DNA of 9,920 bases, taken from IMG/VR virus record IMGVR_UViG_2671180283_000021; one strand, 5' to 3'. The stretch's first letter is position 1. Each line of letters starts with the position of its first letter. This document shows positions 31-9,920 of this stretch, one piece after another. Under the pieces are notes generated by a model, which had not been told where the DNA came from, searched no databases, and saw nothing but the letters and a program-made list of their open reading frames with translations. The translations under genes and the position numbers were made by a program. Source of the stretch: a virus. Taxonomy: Duplodnaviria > Heunggongvirae > Uroviricota > Caudoviricetes.

Positions 31-1644
31 TTATTTATTGGTGAGTACTACGTTCCATGGCAGGAGTTCATCAACTCGGTTGGAAGGCCATTCCGGCAGT
101 ACGCTCAGGATATGGCGCAGATACGCTTCCGGATCGATACCGTTCAGACGGCAGGTGCCGATCAGCCCGTACAACAGTGCTCCACGCTCGCCGCCGTGAT
201 CGCTGCCAAAGAACATAAAGTTTTTCTTTCCGAGACAGACTGCACGAAGCGCTCTTTCCGCAGCATTATTATCCGCCTCCGCCAGACCGTCATCACTGTA
301 ATAACAGAGGGCATCCCACTGATTCAGTACATAGCTGAACGCTTCGCCCAGTCTGGATTTTTTCGACAGCGTACCATTCTTCTCCACCATCCATTCATGC
401 AGCGACGTCAGTAACACTTTGCTTCGCTGCTGCCTGACGGCAAGACGCTCTAACTCCGGTAATCCCCGTATTTCATCCTCGATGGCGTACAGTTCACTGA
501 TTCGCTTCAGGGCTTCTTCTGCCGTCGCACTTTTGCTGCTGATGTATACATCGTGGATTTTTCGCCGGGCATGGGCCCAGCACGCAACTTCTGTCAGTGC
601 ACCACCTTCACGTTCTGCACTGAACAACCTGTCGTAACCTGTGAACGCATCCGCCTGCAGGATACCCCGGAAGGGGCGGAGGTGTTGCTCCGGGTGTTTC
701 CCCTGCCGGTTCGGCGAGTACGCGAACCAGACCGCTGGAGGAGATGACGAACCCACATTGCGATCATCCCGGACATACGTCCAGATACGCCCTGTTTTCG
801 CCTTTTTCTGACCCGGTGCCAGTACCTTTACCGGTGTGTCATCAGTGTGAACCTTGCGGGTGTTCATTACATAACGGTACAGGGCATCATTCACCGGTGT
901 CATTAACTGGCAGCACGCGTCAACCCAGTTGGAGAGTAAGGCCCGGCTCAGTTCGACACCCTGGCGGGCAAAGATTTCACTCTGACGATACAGTGGCAGA
1001 TGTTCGCAGTATTTTCCCGTTAACACGCGGGCAAGTAATCCGGGGCCCGCGATACCACGCTCTATCGGGCGGGACGGCGCCGGTGCTTCAACAATACAGT
1101 CACATTTTGTACAGGCTTTTTTTACCCGTTCTGTGCGGATCACTTTCAGGGCACTGCTCACCAGTTCCAGCTGTTCAGCGCTGACTTCCCCCAGATAATC
1201 CAGCTCACCGCCACACTCCGGGCAACAGCTTTCTTCTGGCTCCAGGCGGTGTATTTCACGGGGAAGGTGTGCCGGTAACGGACGACGATGGCGCGACTGT
1301 CGCAACTGGCGGGGAACCTGAGGATCGTCTTCCCGCCCACTGTAACGATCGCTGTCCTGTTCACGTTGTTTCAGCAGAGCCTCAGCCAGTTCAACTTCAC
1401 GACGCAGTTTTTCAGAACGGGTACCGAACAGCATCCGGCGCAGTTTTTCTATCTGAGCCCGCAGATGTTCTATTTCCCGTTCATCTTCTTCGATCTTTTC
1501 TTCGGCACGTGTCAGTGCAGAGCGCAGGAAGGCTTCCGTCTCTTCAACCAGACTCAGTTGCTGGTCTTTCTGACGGAGGGCTTCAGCCTGCTCAGAGAGC
1601 AACCTTTCCAGCTCTGCGATGCGAATGAGGTATTTCTGACTCAT
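31..1644 (-). CDS. tnpC: IS66-family transposase TnpC (ORF3, DDE transposase with zinc-finger motifs)
   Basis: 537 aa. N-terminal coiled-coil/leucine-zipper-like region (LRAQIEKLRRMLFGTRSEKL), CxxC...CxxC motifs (CCPECGG, CTKCDC), and length and organisation characteristic of IS66 TnpC. Confidence 0.9.
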   Translation of the reverse strand: MSQKYLIRIAELERLLSEQAEALRQKDQQLSLVEETEAFLRSALTRAEEKIEEDEREIEHLRAQIEKLRRMLFGTRSEKLRREVELAEALLKQREQDSDRYSGREDDPQVPRQLRQSRHRRPLPAHLPREIHRLEPEESCCPECGGELDYLGEVSAEQLELVSSALKVIRTERVKKACTKCDCIVEAPAPSRPIERGIAGPGLLARVLTGKYCEHLPLYRQSEIFARQGVELSRALLSNWVDACCQLMTPVNDALYRYVMNTRKVHTDDTPVKVLAPGQKKAKTGRIWTYVRDDRNVGSSSPPAVWFAYSPNRQGKHPEQHLRPFRGILQADAFTGYDRLFSAEREGGALTEVACWAHARRKIHDVYISSKSATAEEALKRISELYAIEDEIRGLPELERLAVRQQRSKVLLTSLHEWMVEKNGTLSKKSRLGEAFSYVLNQWDALCYYSDDGLAEADNNAAERALRAVCLGKKNFMFFGSDHGGERGALLYGLIGTCRLNGIDPEAYLRHILSVLPEWPSNRVDELLPWNVVLTNK

Positions 1645-1674
1645 GACCGTTTTTATAATGCGGTCAGGAGTTTT

Positions 1675-2025
1675 TTACAACATTGTCAGTGAGTTACGGC
1701 TGGATGTTTTTGGCTGACGCCAGTCCAGCTTATCGAGGAGCATTGCCAGTTGCGAGCGGGTAATGGATACCTTGCCGTCACGTACCGCAGGCCAGATAAA
1801 CTGGCCTTCCTCCAGGCGTTTGGTGAACAGGCACAGACCATCAGCATCAGCCCAAAGAATTTTGACGGTGTCACCCCGTCGGCCACGGAAGATAAACAGG
1901 TGACCGGAGAAGGGATTATCATTCAGCACATGTTGTACCTGTTCTCCCAGTCCGTTGAAGGATTTACGCATATCGGTAACGCCGGCAACGAGCCAGATAC
2001 GGGTACCTGATGGGAGTGAGATCAT
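1675..2025 (-). CDS. tnpB: IS66-family accessory protein TnpB (ORF2)
   Basis: 116 aa, with the characteristic small IS66 Orf2 sequence (WLVAGVTDMRKSFNGL...ILWADADGLCLFTKRLE). Sits between tnpA and tnpC, and its start overlaps the tnpA stop. Confidence 0.9.
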   Translation of the reverse strand: MISLPSGTRIWLVAGVTDMRKSFNGLGEQVQHVLNDNPFSGHLFIFRGRRGDTVKILWADADGLCLFTKRLEEGQFIWPAVRDGKVSITRSQLAMLLDKLDWRQPKTSSRNSLTML

Positions 2026-2447
2026 CTTCCCCTCCCGGTCAGTTCACGGATCAACACTGTGAGCAGCTCTGGCGATGGATTTTCCAGCGTCATGTTACCG
2101 TGACGGAATTCCACCTTGCAGGAACTGGCACTGACTCTGGTCTGAGTGGAAGTGGATAAAGACGGCGCAATGGCCGCCACAGGTTCTTTCTGCTCATCCG
2201 GCGTTATTTCTACAGGTAATAATTCAACGCCAGTGTCAGAAGAGGTCGTTACCGGAAGACGCCGCGAAACACGCCCTTCGTTCTGCCAGAGCCTGAGCCA
2301 TTTGAAAATAACATTATCATTGACGCCATTTTCACGTGCAATCTGTGCAACACAAGCTCCAGGTTGTGATGCCAGTTCCACCATACGAAGTTTGAATTCA
2401 TTCGAATAGTTTTTACGAGGTTCTTTTCGCCAGTCCTGTAATTCCAT
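2022..2447 (-). CDS. tnpA: IS66-family TnpA (ORF1, HTH DNA-binding protein)
   Basis: 141 aa, with an N-terminal HTH-like segment (YSNEFKLRMVELASQPGACVAQIARENGVNDNVIFKW). First gene of the IS66 three-ORF module. Confidence 0.85.
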   Translation of the reverse strand: MELQDWRKEPRKNYSNEFKLRMVELASQPGACVAQIARENGVNDNVIFKWLRLWQNEGRVSRRLPVTTSSDTGVELLPVEITPDEQKEPVAAIAPSLSTSTQTRVSASSCKVEFRHGNMTLENPSPELLTVLIRELTGRGR

Positions 2448-2508
2448 ACTTAGATGTCCGTCTATATCAGATGGGCGTCTAAGTTACCAATTCTCGTCTG
2501 ATGGCTAC

Positions 2509-2532
2509 ATACGGCGGTCAGTTTACGCTTAC
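2509..2532. repeat. IS66 terminal inverted repeat (end proximal to tnpA)
   Basis: The reverse complement of ATACGGCGGTCAGTTTACGCTTAC matches window positions 1..24 at about 20 of 24 positions. It lies 85 nt upstream of the tnpA start, which is typical for IS66. Confidence 0.7.
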
Positions 2533-2713
2533 CAGGACTGAGGCCTTTCTGAAACTGGTATCCACGTCTGCGGTAATTCTGAATCAGCCACTCGGCCTGT
2601 TCTTCAGTGCATTGGTCATGCTGGTACCAGTCATATTTGAATGCGTGAGAGCGCCGTCCGTGTCTGCTGGCAGGGTCGGCATCAGAATTGTGGTGTTTGG
2701 TATTGTGCGCCAT
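2533..2713 (-). pseudogene. Possible 3'-truncated ORF remnant interrupted by the IS66 insertion (unknown protein)
   Basis: A minus-strand frame with a plausible ATG at 2713 (MAHNTKHHNSDADPASRHGRRSHAFKYDWYQHDQCTEEQAEWLIQNYRRRGYQF...) runs directly into the IS66 inverted repeat at 2532. The supplied longer ORF (to 2794) begins at a TTG inside a terminator T-tract and is unlikely to be real. No family recognised. Confidence 0.3.
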
Positions 2714-2783
2714 CGGTTGTCTCTGCTGGCGCAGCAGGTGCCAGTTGTTCAGGCTGGCGTGTGGATTGTAAACCAGAACGCCA

Positions 2784-2811
2784 GGAAAAAACAAAACCCG
2801 CGAAGCGGGTT
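2784..2811 (-). terminator. Rho-independent terminator downstream of the R-M operon
   Basis: GC-rich hairpin AACCCGC-GAA-GCGGGTT (2795..2811). On the minus strand it is followed by TTGTTTTTTCC, the reverse complement of 2784..2794. It lies 73 nt downstream of the endonuclease stop. Confidence 0.6.
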
Positions 2812-2883
2812 AGTAAAAATGTACTGAAGTCAATGACGTGCCATCACAGTTAAAATATGACAGACTCTATTTACGTAGAGATG

Positions 2884-3762
2884 TCAGACTGCAAGATCCA
2901 AGGGAAGATCAGAAATATCCTTTAATCTTTTACCATTAACCATCACGGAAAGCATGTCAGCTGCATCGCTGAGCCCCAGTATTTCAACTGCTGATATAAG
3001 TTCATAAAGCGCAAAATGATACACGCAATCTATATCACCAGTACCAAGAGCAATAGACGCCAGACGACTTGGAGTAGGCTCAGCAGTAACAACCATTACA
3101 TGAGGGAGATTTCCCTTACGGTTGCGAATAAGATTTAATGCCTCAGAACGAGCATTCTGGGCCCGGTCGCTTCTTATTGTCCATTTGCAGGAAATACTTG
3201 CGTGTAATATTGGTTTCCCACCATTCGAACTCCTGAGAGCTGACATGCGGGTAACAGAATCATCCACCAGTAATTCAGGACTGTTGATAACTTGATCACA
3301 TTCAGGTTCTCTTTCAACAATAATATCTGGTGAAATCGTATAATCACTCCCCAGTGCAGCAGCTAGCTGAGGATTACTTTTTGCAGCACTATCCAATGCT
3401 ATAAGATGGGCATATTGTTCATATTTAGCTATCTCTAATCTGTTTCTACCAGAAACCTGATGTACATTCCATTTTCCAGGGCGTAAGTGGCTGAGTTTAA
3501 AAAAGGTTTTTTCTATAAACTCTGCGCAGATACTCTCAAACTGATTACCAGATGTTTGCCCTGCAACACGTTCACCAATCGTTTCAGCCTGCAAGAAGCG
3601 AGCAATTTCTCTTGCTATAGCTTTACTGTTTTTGTTACTGCTATCTGCGTTACTAACAACTCCGGCAGTATTAATTGTGAGCGTATTCAGTAACAATTGG
3701 GCATGAAACTCCTTTCTGGCTTCAGCAAAACCAACTATGCTGTCAACCAAATCTCCATTCAT
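2884..3762 (-). CDS. Putative type II restriction endonuclease (PD-(D/E)xK fold), partner of the adjacent C5-methyltransferase
   Basis: Lies immediately downstream of the methyltransferase. The ATG at 3762 is 13 nt after the methyltransferase stop and is preceded by AGGAAA. Candidate catalytic motifs are SPDIIVERE and SCK, with a Glu 14 residues after the Lys, a spacing I recall from the Cfr10I/NgoMIV-like family. The supplied ORF extends to 3897 but that portion overlaps the methyltransferase by 122 nt. Confidence 0.6.
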   Translation of the reverse strand: MNGDLVDSIVGFAEARKEFHAQLLLNTLTINTAGVVSNADSSNKNSKAIAREIARFLQAETIGERVAGQTSGNQFESICAEFIEKTFFKLSHLRPGKWNVHQVSGRNRLEIAKYEQYAHLIALDSAAKSNPQLAAALGSDYTISPDIIVEREPECDQVINSPELLVDDSVTRMSALRSSNGGKPILHASISCKWTIRSDRAQNARSEALNLIRNRKGNLPHVMVVTAEPTPSRLASIALGTGDIDCVYHFALYELISAVEILGLSDAADMLSVMVNGKRLKDISDLPLDLAV

Positions 3763-3775
3763 TTCTGGATTTCCT

Positions 3776-4900
3776 TCAGGCTGCTTGACTATTCTTACTG
3801 ATGTTATTCTTATACCGTCCCTGCAAAACTCCATACACATATTGTGCGATTTTTGCTGCAAATAGCGGTGGAACAGCATTCCCGATCTGCTTTGCAATCT
3901 CAGTTTTTGAACCGGTAAAAATGAAATTATCAGGAAAAGACATTAATCTCGCTGCCTCACGATGAGTTATTGGCCGATCCTCTTCCGGATGTAAATATCG
4001 CCCTTTCTCCGGTTTGAAAAACTCAGTACGAATCGTTACTGAAGGTCTGTCCCACCACAGACGTCCAAACAAATCGGTCCCTCCAGATTTCTTTTTTAGC
4101 CAGCACGCCGGGGTTATATCAGGTCTTTTTTTCTGTAAATCGAAACGGTTACCTCCTGGTGGAACCGCTTTATATCGCTCCAGAGAAACAGGTGTGGGAT
4201 TACGCCCAAAATGTAAGTTCAGCGGAGGAAGTTCATTACGAATATCAGTTCCAACAGGAGCAGGTAAGTCACCAATTGCATCACGCGTACAGACCCATTC
4301 AGGCAAAGCGACATCCTTATCAGGGGAACGATGCGTTGGTGCTGGCGGGAACGCCGGAATACTATGCACATCGAAGAGTTCTCGTTTGATACCGATTGCT
4401 ATCGTTCGTTTTCTTGTCTGAGGTACTCCATAGTCAGCAGTATTCAACACCATTGGATTAAGCAGAATAAAGCCCATGGATTTCGCTCTAAACGTAATGT
4501 CCGCAAACTCATCGCTTATCAGCAATCCGGGGACATTTTCCATGACGAACATACAAGCCCTTGAACGCTCAATGACATCCATATAAGGCTCCCACAATGC
4601 TCTTCGGTGATCACCATAACGATTCTTATTCAATAAACTGAATCCCTGACACGGGGGGCCACCTATGACCACATCAGCCTCAGGAACAGTATTGCTGGAT
4701 GCCCACTCCTCAATATTTGCCTGAACTCCATGCAAACCAAAATTGGCATTGTAGGTATTTATAGCTGCAGCATTATTATCAATAGCAAGGATACTTTCAA
4801 AGTAGTCAGACATCTCTCCATGAAGAAAACCATAAGATAATCCACCTGCCCCACAAAAGAGGTCTATCACTCTGAATTTATTTAATTCTTTCATCCGCAT
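3776..4900 (-). CDS. DNA (cytosine-5)-methyltransferase
   Basis: 374 aa with canonical C5-MTase motifs: motif I FCGAGGLSYGF, motif IV GGPPCQGFS, motif VI ENVPGL, motif X QIGNAVPP. RBS GAGG lies 7 nt upstream of the ATG at 4900. Confidence 0.92.
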   Translation of the reverse strand: MRMKELNKFRVIDLFCGAGGLSYGFLHGEMSDYFESILAIDNNAAAINTYNANFGLHGVQANIEEWASSNTVPEADVVIGGPPCQGFSLLNKNRYGDHRRALWEPYMDVIERSRACMFVMENVPGLLISDEFADITFRAKSMGFILLNPMVLNTADYGVPQTRKRTIAIGIKRELFDVHSIPAFPPAPTHRSPDKDVALPEWVCTRDAIGDLPAPVGTDIRNELPPLNLHFGRNPTPVSLERYKAVPPGGNRFDLQKKRPDITPACWLKKKSGGTDLFGRLWWDRPSVTIRTEFFKPEKGRYLHPEEDRPITHREAARLMSFPDNFIFTGSKTEIAKQIGNAVPPLFAAKIAQYVYGVLQGRYKNNISKNSQAA

Positions 4901-4983
4901 CCATATGCCTCAGATTAATGTTGAGCGTCTTACAGGACGCGTAATGTTAACTGGGGCTTTCTCTATCTGCCTTTTGGTGTTCA

Positions 4984-5008
4984 TGCCTGAGGCAGACAGC
5001 CTCAGGCA
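4984..5008. other. Perfect 9-bp-stem hairpin (TGCCTGAGG-N7-CCTCAGGCA) in the QueH/methyltransferase intergenic region
   Basis: Inverted repeat read directly from the sequence, with no adjacent U-tract on either strand. Possibly a weak terminator for the QueH-like gene or a regulatory structure. Confidence 0.35.
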
Positions 5009-5078
5009 CCCGCAGCAATTCTACTTAACTCACGTCACCTCGCCAATATGAAATCAATCAGAAAGGTGATCCATAAAA

Positions 5079-5765
5079 TCACTCCTTCTCTTCTTTTCCG
5101 TAGTGGAGTTGGCCAATTTTGATAAGAGGGCGTCCCTGAGATTTGCGGTGTAGATTGGTATCGCGCAGAGAATACACACAGCCACAATATTCCTGCTGAT
5201 AGAATTTTTCGCGCTTGCTGATTTCAATCATACGGGACGAGCCGCCCTGCTTGCGCCAGTTATAATCCCAGTACACCATACCCGGATAATGCGCAACAGC
5301 TCGCCGCCCACACTCGTTAATCTGCTGCATATTTTTCCAGCGTGAAATGCCCAGTGAACTGCTGATCACACTGAAACCATTTTCAGCAGCGTACAACGCT
5401 GTCCGCTCAAAACGCATGTCAAAACACATGGTACAACGGATCCCCCTCTCAGGCTCCCATTCCATTCCTTTGGCACGTTCAAACCAGTTGTCGGTGTCGT
5501 AATCAGCATCGATAAACGGCACGCCGTGTTGTTCAGCAAAGCGAATATTTTCATCCTTACGAATTAAATACTCTTTCTGAGGATGAATGTTCGGGTTGTA
5601 GAAAAAGATGGTGTAGTCGATTCCCGAGGCCTGAAGCGCCTCCATCACTTCACCGGAACATGGAGCACAGCAAGAGTGCAGTAGTAGTTTGTTTGCCCCG
5701 TTTGGGAGCTCCAATTTAGGCCGTTTGAAATCAGCAATAGTCATAAATATTTTTATTGGGGTCAT
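5079..5765 (-). CDS. queH: QueH-like protein (DUF208 family; epoxyqueuosine reductase QueH homolog)
   Basis: 228 aa. N-terminal motif [11 protein letters not shown] plus further conserved Cys (RCTMCF, EYCGCVY), consistent with the Fe-S cluster ligands of DUF208/QueH as I recall them. No clear SD at either candidate start (5765 or 5744). Confidence 0.6.
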
Positions 5766-5918
5766 GAAAATAGCACAGAGTGTAGCATCAGAGCAGGGCT
5801 ATCGGGAATATATGTCTAAATCTGGTAATATCTGGTTTTGACGCAAAGCGGACAACCACGCTGGCTCTACCCTGCGCCATGAAAATGTCAATTCACATCT
5901 GAACTAATGCTCTTTAAT

Positions 5919-8129: not shown

Positions 8130-8159
8130 ATATTAGGTTTAGCCTAATGAAATTGTCAA
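8130..8159 (-). promoter_or_regulatory. Putative sigma70 promoter for the ydaS-ydaT-rep operon (rightward-operator analog)
   Basis: On the minus strand: -35 TTGACA (reverse complement of 8154..8159), an 18-nt spacer, and -10 TAATAT (reverse complement of 8130..8135). Overlapped by the palindrome ATTAGG-N5-CCTAAT (8132..8148). Confidence 0.5.
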
Positions 8160-8172
8160 TAGGCTATGCCTA
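8132..8172. promoter_or_regulatory. Operator cluster between ydaS-like and repressor genes
   Basis: Perfect palindromes ATTAGG-TTTAG-CCTAAT (8132..8148) and TAGGC-TAT-GCCTA (8160..8172), with a further half-site TTGCCTAA at 8190..8197. Confidence 0.55.
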
Positions 8173-8226
8173 ATACATCGAGAGTAGGGATTGCCTAACG
8201 CGATGCGCATAGGAGACTATTAAGCA

Positions 8227-8703
8227 ATGCTTAGTGGTAAAGACTTAGGCCGAGCGATAGAGCAGGCCATTAACAAAAAAATTGCATCAGGAGCCGTCAA
8301 ATCAAAGGCGGAAATCGCACGTCATTTCAAAGTCCAACCACCATCAATCCATGACTGGATTAAGAAAGGTTCGATAAGTAAAGACAAACTTCCAGAACTA
8401 TGGCGTTTCTTTTCTGATGTGGTTGGTCCAGAGCATTGGGGGCTTAACGAATACCCCATACCAACCCCATCCACTTCAGATACAAAAAGTGAACTTTTAG
8501 ACATAAACAGCCTTTATCAAGCCGCCTCTGATGAAAAAAGAGCAATTGTGGCTTTCATCTTATCTGGAAATGCTACGGAGCCTAGTTGGGTTGATCATGA
8601 CGTTCGCGCCTACATTGCCGCAATGGAAATGAAGGTAGCTAACTATCTGAAAAATCAAGAATCAAAACGGAAAAGCCAGAACATCACCAAGACAGGAACT
8701 TAA
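8227..8703 (+). CDS. racR: RacR-like prophage repressor (XRE/CI-type HTH)
   Basis: 158 aa, with an HTH segment (SKAEIARHFKVQPPSIHDWIKKG). Divergent from the ydaS/ydaT-like genes, with operators on both flanks. Length and synteny match Rac prophage racR; the symbol is assigned by context, not by sequence identity. Confidence 0.7.
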   Translation: MLSGKDLGRAIEQAINKKIASGAVKSKAEIARHFKVQPPSIHDWIKKGSISKDKLPELWRFFSDVVGPEHWGLNEYPIPTPSTSDTKSELLDINSLYQAASDEKRAIVAFILSGNATEPSWVDHDVRAYIAAMEMKVANYLKNQESKRKSQNITKTGT

Positions 8704-8717
8704 ACTTATATGGTCCG

Positions 8718-8745
8718 ACGGGAAATTCCTAGTTCCCGTTAGTTA
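8718..8745 (+). terminator. Possible weak terminator after the repressor gene
   Basis: Hairpin ACGGGAA-N8-TTCCCGT (8718..8739) followed by a T-containing but poor tract (TAGTTAA). Confidence 0.3.
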
Positions 8746-8775
8746 ACTCCTACTACCTCTCCCACAAACCATCAC

Positions 8776-8840
8776 CTATTAGGTTGCGCCCAGATTATTA
8801 GGCATAGCCTATTGACAAGTAATTAGGCATTTCCTATAGT
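8776..8840 (+). promoter_or_regulatory. Operator/promoter module (leftward-operator analog) driving the rightward small-gene operon
   Basis: Palindrome TAGGC-ATA-GCCTA (8799..8811) lies immediately upstream of -35 TTGACA (8812..8817), followed by a 17-nt spacer and -10 TATAGT (8835..8840). Positions 8797..8818 are an exact inverted copy of 8153..8174 (TTGTCAATAGGCTATGCCTAAT). Extra half-sites ATTAGG at 8778..8783 and 8822..8827. Confidence 0.55.
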
Positions 8841-9021
8841 TTTCCCATACCAACCCATCCCGTCCCACACAATACAGGGCAATACCTCGAGTTACCAGGC
8901 AGTGGTCAGGGGTTAAGTAGCCAGCCCGAGGCGTAAGAACATGACGGCAGGGTTCAACTTTAATAACTATGCAGCAGGTTTTTGTTCCGCTACCCCGGCG
9001 TTAAGGGGAAATGAGGTCAGC

Positions 9022-9174
9022 ATGGATACTATCGAGCTTGGCAACAACGAATCTCTGGTATGCGGCGTGTTTCCCAACCAGGACGGCACGTTTACCGCGA
9101 TGACATATACCAGAAGCAAAACGTTTAAAACTGAAGCTGGCGCGCGTCGCTGGTTAACCAGAAACACTGACTGA
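9022..9174 (+). CDS. Small hypothetical protein (Rac-region YdaF/YdaG-like position)
   Basis: About 50 aa from the ATG at 9022, with GAGG 5 nt upstream (MDTIELGNNESLVCGVFPNQDGTFTAMTYTRSKTFKTEAGARRWL...). The supplied ORF offers an alternative ATG at 8941 (77 aa). Its stop overlaps the next ORF. Confidence 0.4.
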   Translation: MDTIELGNNESLVCGVFPNQDGTFTAMTYTRSKTFKTEAGARRWLTRNTD

Positions 9175-9185
9175 TGAGGTTGACG

Positions 9186-9506
9186 ATGGAATTTAAAGAT
9201 TTACCAGTACCATTCCAGGAAATGGCATCGAATGTGGTTCGCTCTCAACTGGCGACTCTTGACCTGAGTACCGTAGAAAAAGAAACCATCGACAATATAT
9301 CCGGTAACGTACGCCGAGCCTTTATCGGGCTGTACGAAGAGAAGCAGCTCTCTGATAACCAGGATTTACATGAAAAATACTTCCTGGATCTAATGGACAT
9401 CATTGATAAGGGGTTTGGCTTGTTAATGAAAAAGAAAGGGATTCGAATAGAACCCCTTGAAAATTACTTTGCAACAAAAAGCATTAATTCTTTTGATTCA
9501 AAATAA
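9186..9506 (+). CDS. Hypothetical protein (AT-rich accessory gene)
   Basis: 106 aa from the ATG at 9186, with GAGG 5 nt upstream; an alternative ATG at 9174 overlaps the previous stop. AT-rich codon usage. No recognisable motif. Confidence 0.45.
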   Translation: MEFKDLPVPFQEMASNVVRSQLATLDLSTVEKETIDNISGNVRRAFIGLYEEKQLSDNQDLHEKYFLDLMDIIDKGFGLLMKKKGIRIEPLENYFATKSINSFDSK

Positions 9507-9759
9507 GAGAATTAATTACAGACTTAACATGCTCTTTCTCATGATTGAAGCTCTCATGATTGAAAGTGCCGGGTTGAAGCGAGTCGATATAATCAACAAG
9601 ACTCTGTCGTACGACTTCATTTTTATCCATAACAGATGCAAGAAATGAAATTGCTAAAAGAGTTATATCACTACGCGCCGCAGCATGTTGCAATGCTTTA
9701 TCAAAATTATTAATCTGGCGTATCAGGGAGTTAATGATTTCATCATTTTCAGTCGACAT
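9484..9759 (-). CDS. Hypothetical protein, convergent with and 3'-overlapping the 9186..9506 gene
   Basis: About 91 aa from the ATG at 9759, preceded by a strong SD (AGGAGGG, 4-nt spacer). The supplied ORF extends to 9837 without an RBS. AT-rich. No family recognised. Confidence 0.45.
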   Translation of the reverse strand: MSTENDEIINSLIRQINNFDKALQHAAARSDITLLAISFLASVMDKNEVVRQSLVDYIDSLQPGTFNHESFNHEKEHVKSVINSLILNQKN

Positions 9760-9920
9760 TTCACCCTCCTGAGGGTTGGTGATTAAGGAGTTCTCCACGG
9801 GTGAGGTGGAGTGCGTGCGCCGGACACGGGTGAGCATCCGGCACTGACAGTTTACTGAAAGGATATTTCCCTGAAAAGTCAGACCATAACGCGAAAGCGC
9901 ACGGCGAGGTAGCTGGTTCA

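Follow-up and report, generated by a model that had tools for sequence, protein, structure and literature searches.

A candidate moron-type gene antisense to the early-left operon of a Rac/Qin-hybrid prophage, at the position of sieB

The stretch of DNA analysed here (the window) comprises 9,920 nucleotides (nt) of the IMG/VR virus record IMGVR_UViG_2671180283_000021. Judged by its genes, it is the immunity region of a Rac/Qin-hybrid lambdoid prophage of Escherichia coli with Rac-type immunity (racR/ydaS/ydaT). Near its right end two small genes converge, ORF-A on the + strand and ORF-B on the - strand. The best reading of the sequence comparisons is that ORF-B is a self-contained, moron-type accessory gene located at the sieB position, antisense within the early-left operon. 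We lean, with modest confidence, towards the view that ORF-A and ORF-B are independent genes and that ORF-B, in a variable moron slot antisense in the early-left operon, is expressed in the lysogen and has a role in exclusion or lysogenic conversion. ORF-B represents a new, uncharacterised family of small genes in a type of prophage slot that is already known, and as such the feature is an ordinary one.

A variable slot antisense to the early-left operon

ORF-A runs from the ATG at 9186 to the TAA at 9504-9506 (106 aa) and is preceded by GAGG 6 nt 5' of the ATG. ORF-B runs in the opposite direction from the ATG at 9757-9759 to the TAA at 9484-9486 (91 aa), with AGGAGG 5 nt 5' of its ATG. The 3' ends of the genes overlap by 23 nt (9484-9506). 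The G+C content was 0.327 in the C-terminal half of ORF-A (9345-9506) and 0.368 in ORF-B (9507-9759), compared with 0.478 for the whole window and 0.553 for the flank 9760-9920. An earlier reading made from the letters alone (the sequence-only reading) had described two convergent small ORFs with good ribosome-binding sites and a 23-nt 3' overlap in an AT-rich segment; the coordinates, the Shine-Dalgarno (SD) sequences and a G+C content of 33-37% confirm this description.

The gene order beyond the window was taken from a complete genome, L001, which is 99.9% identical to window positions 8700-9920. Its + strand carries the DUF1391 gene, ORF-A, the small RNA (sRNA) DicF, dicB, a DUF1482/ydfD-like gene, an exonuclease gene, xis, int and ompW, with ORF-B on the - strand between ORF-A and DicF. 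The arrangement resembles the dicBF operon of Qin (ydfA-ydfB-ydfC-dicF-dicB-ydfD) in the shared dicF leader followed by dicF, dicB and a ydfD-like gene. K-12 Qin differs from the window in having neither ORF-A nor an antisense gene, and its immunity is dicA/dicC whereas that of the window is Rac-type. The Qin dicBF operon is transcribed as one repressor-controlled polycistronic RNA, ydfABC-dicF-dicB-ydfD (PMC10448788; PMC5069750). By analogy, ORF-A is assigned to the early-left operon, and ORF-B is placed antisense inside that transcript. Mutual antisense transcription, which had been predicted from the overlap, is inherent in this arrangement, as ORF-B lies wholly within the early-left transcript, polycistronic by analogy with dicBF (PMC10448788).

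Downstream of the slot, positions 9774-9920 are, on the + strand, a conserved leader for the dicF-dicB portion of the early-left operon, and the same DNA serves as the 5' leader of ORF-B on the - strand. The leader corresponds to the 'long untranslated region containing dicF' (PMC5069750). Among 5426 complete E. coli genomes, 4386 matched part of the query 8700-9920, and the mapped loci, empty slots included, all share 9774-9920. The leader is also conserved in Salmonella.

The position of ORF-B is occupied differently among phages, by ORF-B, B3, B', B'', YmfI or SieB, or it is empty. B' is a 77-aa protein (phrog_10348) from PPompW phages of enterohaemorrhagic E. coli, and B'' is a 73-aa protein (phrog_7249). 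Junction mapping and alignment defined a shared translation-initiation region, CTCAGGAGGGTGAA (9760-9773, - strand), that is present in every slot filled with ORF-B, B3, B' or B'' and absent from empty slots. The right junction of the cassette lies at 9760 when the window is compared with other filled slots and at 9774 when it is compared with empty slots; the left junction lies at 9502/9503. When IMG/VR was scanned for the 19-nt junction of SD and ATG, at least 120 phage contigs were obtained, in which the common sequence CCCTCAGGAGGGTGAAATG is followed by one of three different genes: ORF-B (at least 46), B3 (at least 53) or B'' (at least 21). Of the complete E. coli genomes, 198 have ORF-B, 127 have B3 and 88 have B'', and ORF-B was not found in 50,697 deposited phage genomes. 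Phages with an empty slot or an alternative cassette share the flanks, and the G+C content is 0.37 in the cassette vs 0.55 in the flank, as in a moron. Genes antisense to prophage lytic genes were reported by Owen et al. to be characteristic of moron (prophage accessory) loci (PMC7067206).

The location corresponds to that of sieB. K-12 Rac has the order racR-ydaG-ydaF-[sieB]-kilS-kilR, the window racR-DUF1391-ORF-A-[ORF-B]-dicF-dicB. The sieB gene of K-12 Rac has the same orientation, shares 4 nt with the 3' end of ydaF and is followed by the sRNA kilS and by kilR. The K-12 Qin slot is empty, with the dicF leader directly after ydfC. The comparison with Rac-like phages in the sequence-only reading was therefore apt, since K-12 Rac sieB shares position, orientation and a 3' overlap with the preceding small gene. 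Its proposal of a horizontally acquired accessory pair held in one respect, in that the segment is mosaic, AT-rich accessory DNA; as a pair, the genes are not co-inherited, the 3' end of ORF-A being found in 736 genomes and ORF-B in 198.

ORF-A is itself composed of two parts, a conserved N-module (9186-9344, aa 1-53) and an AT-rich, exchangeable C-module (9345-9506), both on the + strand. The protein is RefSeq WP_001435739.1 and matches phrog_6937 with an E value of 6e-67 (residues 1-106 against profile positions 1-106 of 124), so that the window allele is without the last ~18 profile positions. Its N-terminal 55-66 aa also match phrog_1363, 2151 and 9419. The N-module holds the invariant block DxISGNVRRAFIGLYEEK and, in the family alignment, is joined to at least four unrelated C-termini, giving forms of 106/109, 122, 124, 133 and 135 aa. 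The 106-aa form of the window equals the common 124-aa form up to 9502 and is different beyond. The C-module that partners B3 (A3c) exists as a stand-alone gene in Salmonella and in a few E. coli contigs, and for this reason ORF-A is regarded as a fusion of two small modules. The AlphaFold2 (AF2) model of ORF-A has three long helices (pLDDT 68), and a Foldseek search against the PDB gave no match below E 2.6. The top Foldseek match, AcrIIC4, was rejected (probability 0.15).

The 3' overlap spans the mosaic junction. In ORF-A alleles without ORF-B, homology to the window stops at 9502. It follows that ORF-A-type DNA up to 9502 encodes the last five codons and the stop of ORF-B, and that the last codon and the stop of ORF-A consist of ORF-B-specific DNA. 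Either arrangement at this junction may be the ancestral one. In a divergent allele, where the ORF-A stop TAA is CAA, the overlap is 32 nt, and equivalent pairs in other phages overlap by 41, 11, 23, 4 and 63 nt. Because its length is not conserved, the overlap itself is not the functional element. From these alignments, the 23-nt overlap is read as a consequence of mosaic joining in a compact genome and not as a conserved element. An AT-rich inverted repeat with 12-nt arms and a 10-nt loop (9483-9516) is centred on both stop codons. Its folding energy is -9.8 kcal/mol (z -3.4) on the + strand; the - strand folds weakly (-5.1 kcal/mol, z -1.7).

A toxin-immunity function had also been suggested for the two genes. 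Under this explanation, the ORF-A C-module and ORF-B would cooperate as a toxin-immunity or two-component exclusion pair, and the overlap would couple their expression through mutual antisense RNA. The C-terminal half of ORF-A and ORF-B do share one variable, AT-rich block with conserved DNA on either side, and among the at least 120 phage contigs listed each type of convergent gene goes with a single kind of ORF-A C-module. E. coli and Salmonella both retain the A3c-B3 pair and its 41-nt overlap, although in Salmonella A3c stands alone as a gene. In the Salmonella enterica prophage (L133, 6001-6457), the B3-like gene converges with this overlap on a stand-alone 71-aa homologue of an ORF-A C-module. 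Co-variation of the ORF-B-type gene with the ORF-A C-module is, however, expected because adjacent DNA is physically linked, and partners are exchanged in several combinations. ORF-B appears always beside this ORF-A type in the 5426 genomes, but the 198 genomes with ORF-B amount to only ~27% of the 736 with the ORF-A 3' end. The remaining ~73% of this ORF-A type lack ORF-B and have either the unrelated B'' (88 genomes) or nothing convergent, as in O157:H7 prophages. ORF-B and B3 are homologous, yet their partner modules are unrelated. The YmfJ/A3c module is paired with B3, with the unrelated YmfI (e14) or with a 57-aa ORF (EH41), and an A3c-like module occurs without B3 in ~42 genomes.

ORF-A and ORF-B also belong to opposed transcription units under different control, and neither matches a toxin-antitoxin (TA) or defence family in Pfam, NCBIfam or PADLOC. 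The genes differ from type II TA systems in being convergent, not co-transcribed and not strictly co-inherited, with no similarity to TA families. They differ from type I systems in that the 91- and 106-aa products are hydrophilic/acidic and both strands are under protein-level purifying selection. We consider a functional pair unlikely, and the toxin-immunity proposal was not supported, given the mixing of partner families, the opposed transcription units and the missing TA family match. The appearance of an overlapping convergent toxin-immunity pair is a by-product of lambdoid mosaicism.

Coding status, start codon and relatives of ORF-B

Substitution patterns were determined by Nei-Gojobori counts with divergent alleles from three metagenome contigs (L010-L012), which are 83% identical to the window in nucleotides over the body of ORF-B and 96-100% identical just upstream of it. 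Omega was 0.27-0.31 in the ORF-B frame vs 0.44-1.65 in the remaining five frames. For ORF-A, it was 0.29 in the gene's own frame vs 1.3-1.5 in other frames. Within ORF-B, two tandem 15-nt units (9537-9566, - strand) form a direct repeat encoding FNHES/FNHEK. Strains carry one, two or three copies, resulting in proteins of 86, 91 and 96 aa, in frame every time, a pattern suggestive of slipped-strand variation within a loop that joins helices 3 and 4. The ORFs go beyond chance because omega is low in frame only, the repeat varies in frame and ORF-B has a colinear remote homologue. By these sequence measures, ORF-A and ORF-B are both real protein-coding genes under protein-level purifying selection. 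A 63-aa ORF with a TTG start lies antisense to ORF-B (9457-9648, + strand); it has no SD and an omega of 0.44-0.46, the second-lowest of the six frames, and was judged to be a shadow of the ORF-B frame.

The ORF-B frame is open upstream beyond the end of the window. RefSeq WP_001351093.1 is a 145-aa protein with its start at window position 9921, one base past the window end, which adds 54 codons, and gene callers have variously given the same gene 86, 91, 117, 127 or 145 aa. The 145-aa form has 481 database members, and in L001 the frame is open for up to 162 aa. We nevertheless regard the RefSeq model as very unlikely to be correct. The 54 extra codons lie in the conserved dicF leader, a sequence that empty-slot phages have as well; there the same frame is open by chance and stops a few codons past the junction. 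Divergence is 17% in the body of ORF-B and 0-4% upstream, and the drop falls exactly at the ATG at 9759. At B3 loci, the extension is shut by an in-frame stop that precedes the ATG by 15 codons. The SD (AGGAGG, 5 nt) precedes the ATG at 9759 only, with none at the ATG at 9837 or 9921, and PGAP calls the short form in L005. From the alignments, the 145-aa model is probably over-extended and 9759 the right start, and the analysis thus corrects a widespread annotation.

ORF-B is a hydrophilic, acidic protein (pI 5.4) with a maximum 19-residue hydropathy of 1.43 and no segment of transmembrane grade. Its AF2 model is a soluble bundle of four helices (pLDDT 67). A phmmer search against 1.84 billion cluster representatives returned only ORF-B itself, fragments of it and one spurious match, a repetitive 1168-aa protein that shares the short motif VRQDIIDGLDS. 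Compared directly with B3 by BLASTP, ORF-B is 28% identical over 86 of 91 residues, colinear, with E 9e-6 for the single comparison. In hmmscan, it matches phrog_18692, the family of B3 itself, colinearly and over the full length, but weakly and below family thresholds (E 0.022, residues 9-88 against profile positions 6-89 of 92). ORF-B was judged from these alignments to be a remote homologue of the phrog_18692 family. B3 (92-93 aa, from Rac-like prophages of E. coli and Salmonella) is like ORF-B in length, SD, leader, slot and orientation, and is likewise uncharacterised. It differs in being too diverged to be linked by phmmer at database scale, in its upstream module and in its 41-nt overlap.

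A profile search with ORF-B and B3 found only unnamed Escherichia and Salmonella proteins without a Pfam domain. A sequence search of the PDB with ORF-B gave nothing, and fold searches gave generic helical bundles or nothing. The Pfam scan assigned ORF-B to no family, PHROGs returned phrog_18692 only and NCBIfam only noise. A PADLOC match to BrxA (12.7 bits, E 0.014) is not shared by the B3 homologues and was dismissed as noise. Profile-profile tests for cryptic relatives of the B family among two ORF-A C-modules, B'', B' and YmfI were all negative, and the protein accessions of the two genes were not mentioned in the literature searched. The statement in the sequence-only reading that recognisable motifs are missing was borne out, with nothing above noise in Pfam, NCBIfam or PADLOC for toxin, antitoxin, SieB or defence families. 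The remote-homology search and structure prediction that it had proposed succeeded in part, yielding B3, an uncharacterised remote homologue of ORF-B, but no relatives of known function and no fold match.

Proposed function and expression of ORF-B

By analogy of position, ORF-B most likely encodes a factor of the superinfection-exclusion or abortive-infection type, or one that serves lysogenic conversion in another way. The repressor would keep the early-left promoter, and hence ORF-A, silent in the lysogen, while leftward transcription of ORF-B would start at a weak promoter within the conserved dicF leader and end at a hairpin inside ORF-A (9458-9436). The ORF-B protein, a predicted soluble, acidic four-helix bundle, would act in the cytoplasm of the lysogen. 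On induction, or with an incoming phage of the same allele, early-left transcription would cross ORF-B. Such readthrough toward dicF-dicB could shut ORF-B by transcriptional collision and by formation of double-stranded RNA with the ORF-B mRNA. On this analogy, the lysogen probably expresses ORF-B, and readthrough from the early operon would silence it.

Promoter scans found no strong sigma-70 promoter for ORF-B. The candidate is a weak one, TTTTCA-17-TAAACT (9849-9877, - strand; 8/12 matches). The Salmonella counterpart keeps the hexamers with a different spacer (TTTTCA-18-TAAGCT). The terminator-like hairpin (9436-9458, - strand) has a 9-bp stem followed by UUUCUUUUU and lies 25 nt downstream of the ORF-B stop, within ORF-A codons. 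Its predicted free energy is -11.6 kcal/mol (z -3.85) and a U-run follows, so that it is a candidate terminator of the ORF-B transcript. Among the matches listed, the stem is intact in 41 of 45 ORF-B-linked and in 21 of 21 B''-linked alleles, and it is weaker (-7.4) in the single allele type without a convergent gene.

Several points weigh against this interpretation of ORF-B. In phmmer, PADLOC, profile, PDB and fold searches, ORF-B had no sequence or fold link to any exclusion or defence protein, and because of this its functional assignment rests on position alone. The only promoter candidate is weak (8/12) and lies in DNA that empty-slot phages also conserve. The sequence of the hairpin is constrained by ORF-A coding, and the comparison without a B gene comprises one allele type. 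The tight linkage of cassette and C-module and the retention of A3c-B3 in Salmonella would also be expected of a functional pair.

A closer relation to SieB is extremely unlikely. If ORF-B were a SieB-type membrane exclusion protein diverged past recognition, the common position, orientation and 3' overlap with the preceding small gene of K-12 Rac sieB would be accounted for. ORF-B is, however, without similarity to any named family including SieB in Pfam and PHROGs, and its predicted fold is a soluble helical bundle. It has 91 aa, a pI of 5.4 and a hydropathy of 1.43, against 162 aa, 9.9 and 2.19 for K-12 SieB, which has clear transmembrane segments. In Rac of K-12, lambda and P22, sieB is like ORF-B in being flanked by the small genes downstream of the repressor on one side and the kil/recombination genes on the other, antisense to early-left transcription. 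The sieB product differs in being basic and membrane-embedded, whereas ORF-B is half its size, acidic and predicted to be soluble, with no sequence or fold similarity. On this comparison, ORF-B would be a positional analogue and not a homologue of SieB.

In P22, the sas RNA exploits the antisense relationship of sieB to early-left transcription. The product of the slot could be RNA and the ORF secondary. Leftward transcription, in cis or as antisense, would then damp leaky early-left transcription into the toxic dicF-dicB, or it would provide an anti-phage antisense RNA like P22 sas or BTP1 STnc6030. The whole of ORF-B is antisense to a polycistronic transcript with two cell-division inhibitors further along, and unrelated genes can occupy the slot behind the same leader and SD. 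Antisense RNAs also have precedents in prophage exclusion, P22 sas being among those mentioned (PMC7067206). On the other side, the omega of 0.27-0.31 is specific to the ORF-B frame, indels are in frame, the strong SD of ORF-B is conserved and the homologue B3, 28% identical, has the same length, which argues for selection on the protein. Moreover, many prophages, K-12 Qin included, tolerate an empty slot. We therefore give an RNA product a small though not negligible chance. An RNA role and a protein role of the slot are not mutually exclusive.

A convergent pair at a comparable place is found in K-12 e14 (L136, 2998-3585), where the repressor is followed by the small early gene ymfJ, the convergent ymfI and then xis-int, with a 63-nt overlap of the two genes. 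Over residues 2-41, e14 YmfJ is 75% identical to the C-module that partners B3, which belongs to the 133-aa variant of ORF-A. In contrast to the window, YmfI is unrelated to ORF-B/B3, and YmfJ is unrelated to the ORF-A C-module of the window. Both YmfI and YmfJ are uncharacterised. In an SOS time course of e14, ymfJ increased ~28-fold late and the convergent ymfI ~4-fold (PMC11002266). By analogy, this induction fits separate control of the two genes.

A broader and tentative proposal, which we hold to be improbable, is that the Rac/Qin/e14 slot is a hypervariable hotspot whose occupants (ORF-B/B3, B', B'', YmfI, SieB) are small cytoplasmic proteins of exclusion or defence, with allele-specific, RNA-based self-tolerance, and that ORF-B is a new soluble exclusion effector. 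In a phage with the same cassette, the early-left transcript would supply a perfectly matching antisense RNA and the phage would escape, and phages with different cassettes would be excluded. If true, the slot would extend the P22 sieB/sas idea of antisense-mediated self-escape. If the slot occupants are exclusion or defence factors, they would constitute a compact, easily recognised hotspot in which to mine small anti-phage proteins. It would sit behind the conserved dicF leader, which is apparently present in ~80% of complete E. coli genomes, given the 4386 of 5426 that match part of 8700-9920.

Prophage context and neighbouring features

The repressor gene racR occupies 8227-8703 on the + strand. 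To its left, on the - strand, lie ydaS/cro-like, ydaT/cII-like, O-like replication and DUF977/Ren-like genes. Between racR and the DUF1391 gene, the promoter scan located the PL-like early-left promoter of the operon to which ORF-A belongs, TTGACA-17-TATAGT (8812-8840, + strand; 11/12 matches). It is bracketed by two copies of the 16-nt operator-like sequence ATTAGGCATAGCCTAT (8797-8812 and 8822-8837, + strand). Two further copies (8132-8147 and 8159-8174) bracket the ydaS/PR-like promoter TTGACA-18-TAATAT (- strand, 8159-8130). The four copies in the window compare with 0.04 expected, and the sequence matches the K-12 racR-ydaS intergenic region. The copies are presumably RacR operators, through which RacR would repress. 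The first small early-left gene is the DUF1391 gene (ydaF/ydfA-like; 9022-9174, + strand; Pfam DUF1391, E 9e-28), a RefSeq CDS in L001; a longer ORF starts at 8941.

DicF itself scored 76.7 bits in Rfam at the equivalent of window positions 10096-10147, just past the window. Besides this off-window match, Rfam returned a sub-threshold match to STnc100 and none over the overlap or the leader. In the Salmonella enterica prophage with the B3-like gene (L133), the early-left strand has a DicF-like terminator hairpin (5725-5775) upstream of ydaE. Within the dicF leader, a 10-nt direct repeat, CACGGGTGAG, occurs at 9796-9805 and 9825-9834 in two adjacent hairpins (CTCCAC..GTGGAG and GCCGGA..TCCGGC). 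The repeat/hairpin element (9790-9850) is conserved between E. coli and Salmonella and may serve in RNA processing or antitermination.

In its left half (31-5765), the window contains an IS66 element (31-2447; three ORFs) and genes for an NgoMIV-type restriction enzyme (2884-3897), for a C5 cytosine methyltransferase (3776-4900) and for the epoxyqueuosine reductase QueH (5079-5765). In the complete prophage closest to that of the window, L001, nin-region genes take the place of this block. The IS66/restriction-methyltransferase/QueH block is a second cargo insertion in the same prophage. In E. coli EH41 (L137, 2294-2775), a RelE/ParE toxin-antitoxin pair is located between the prophage repressor and the DUF1391 gene; this site is a second moron slot of the same phage family, at the position equivalent to rexAB.

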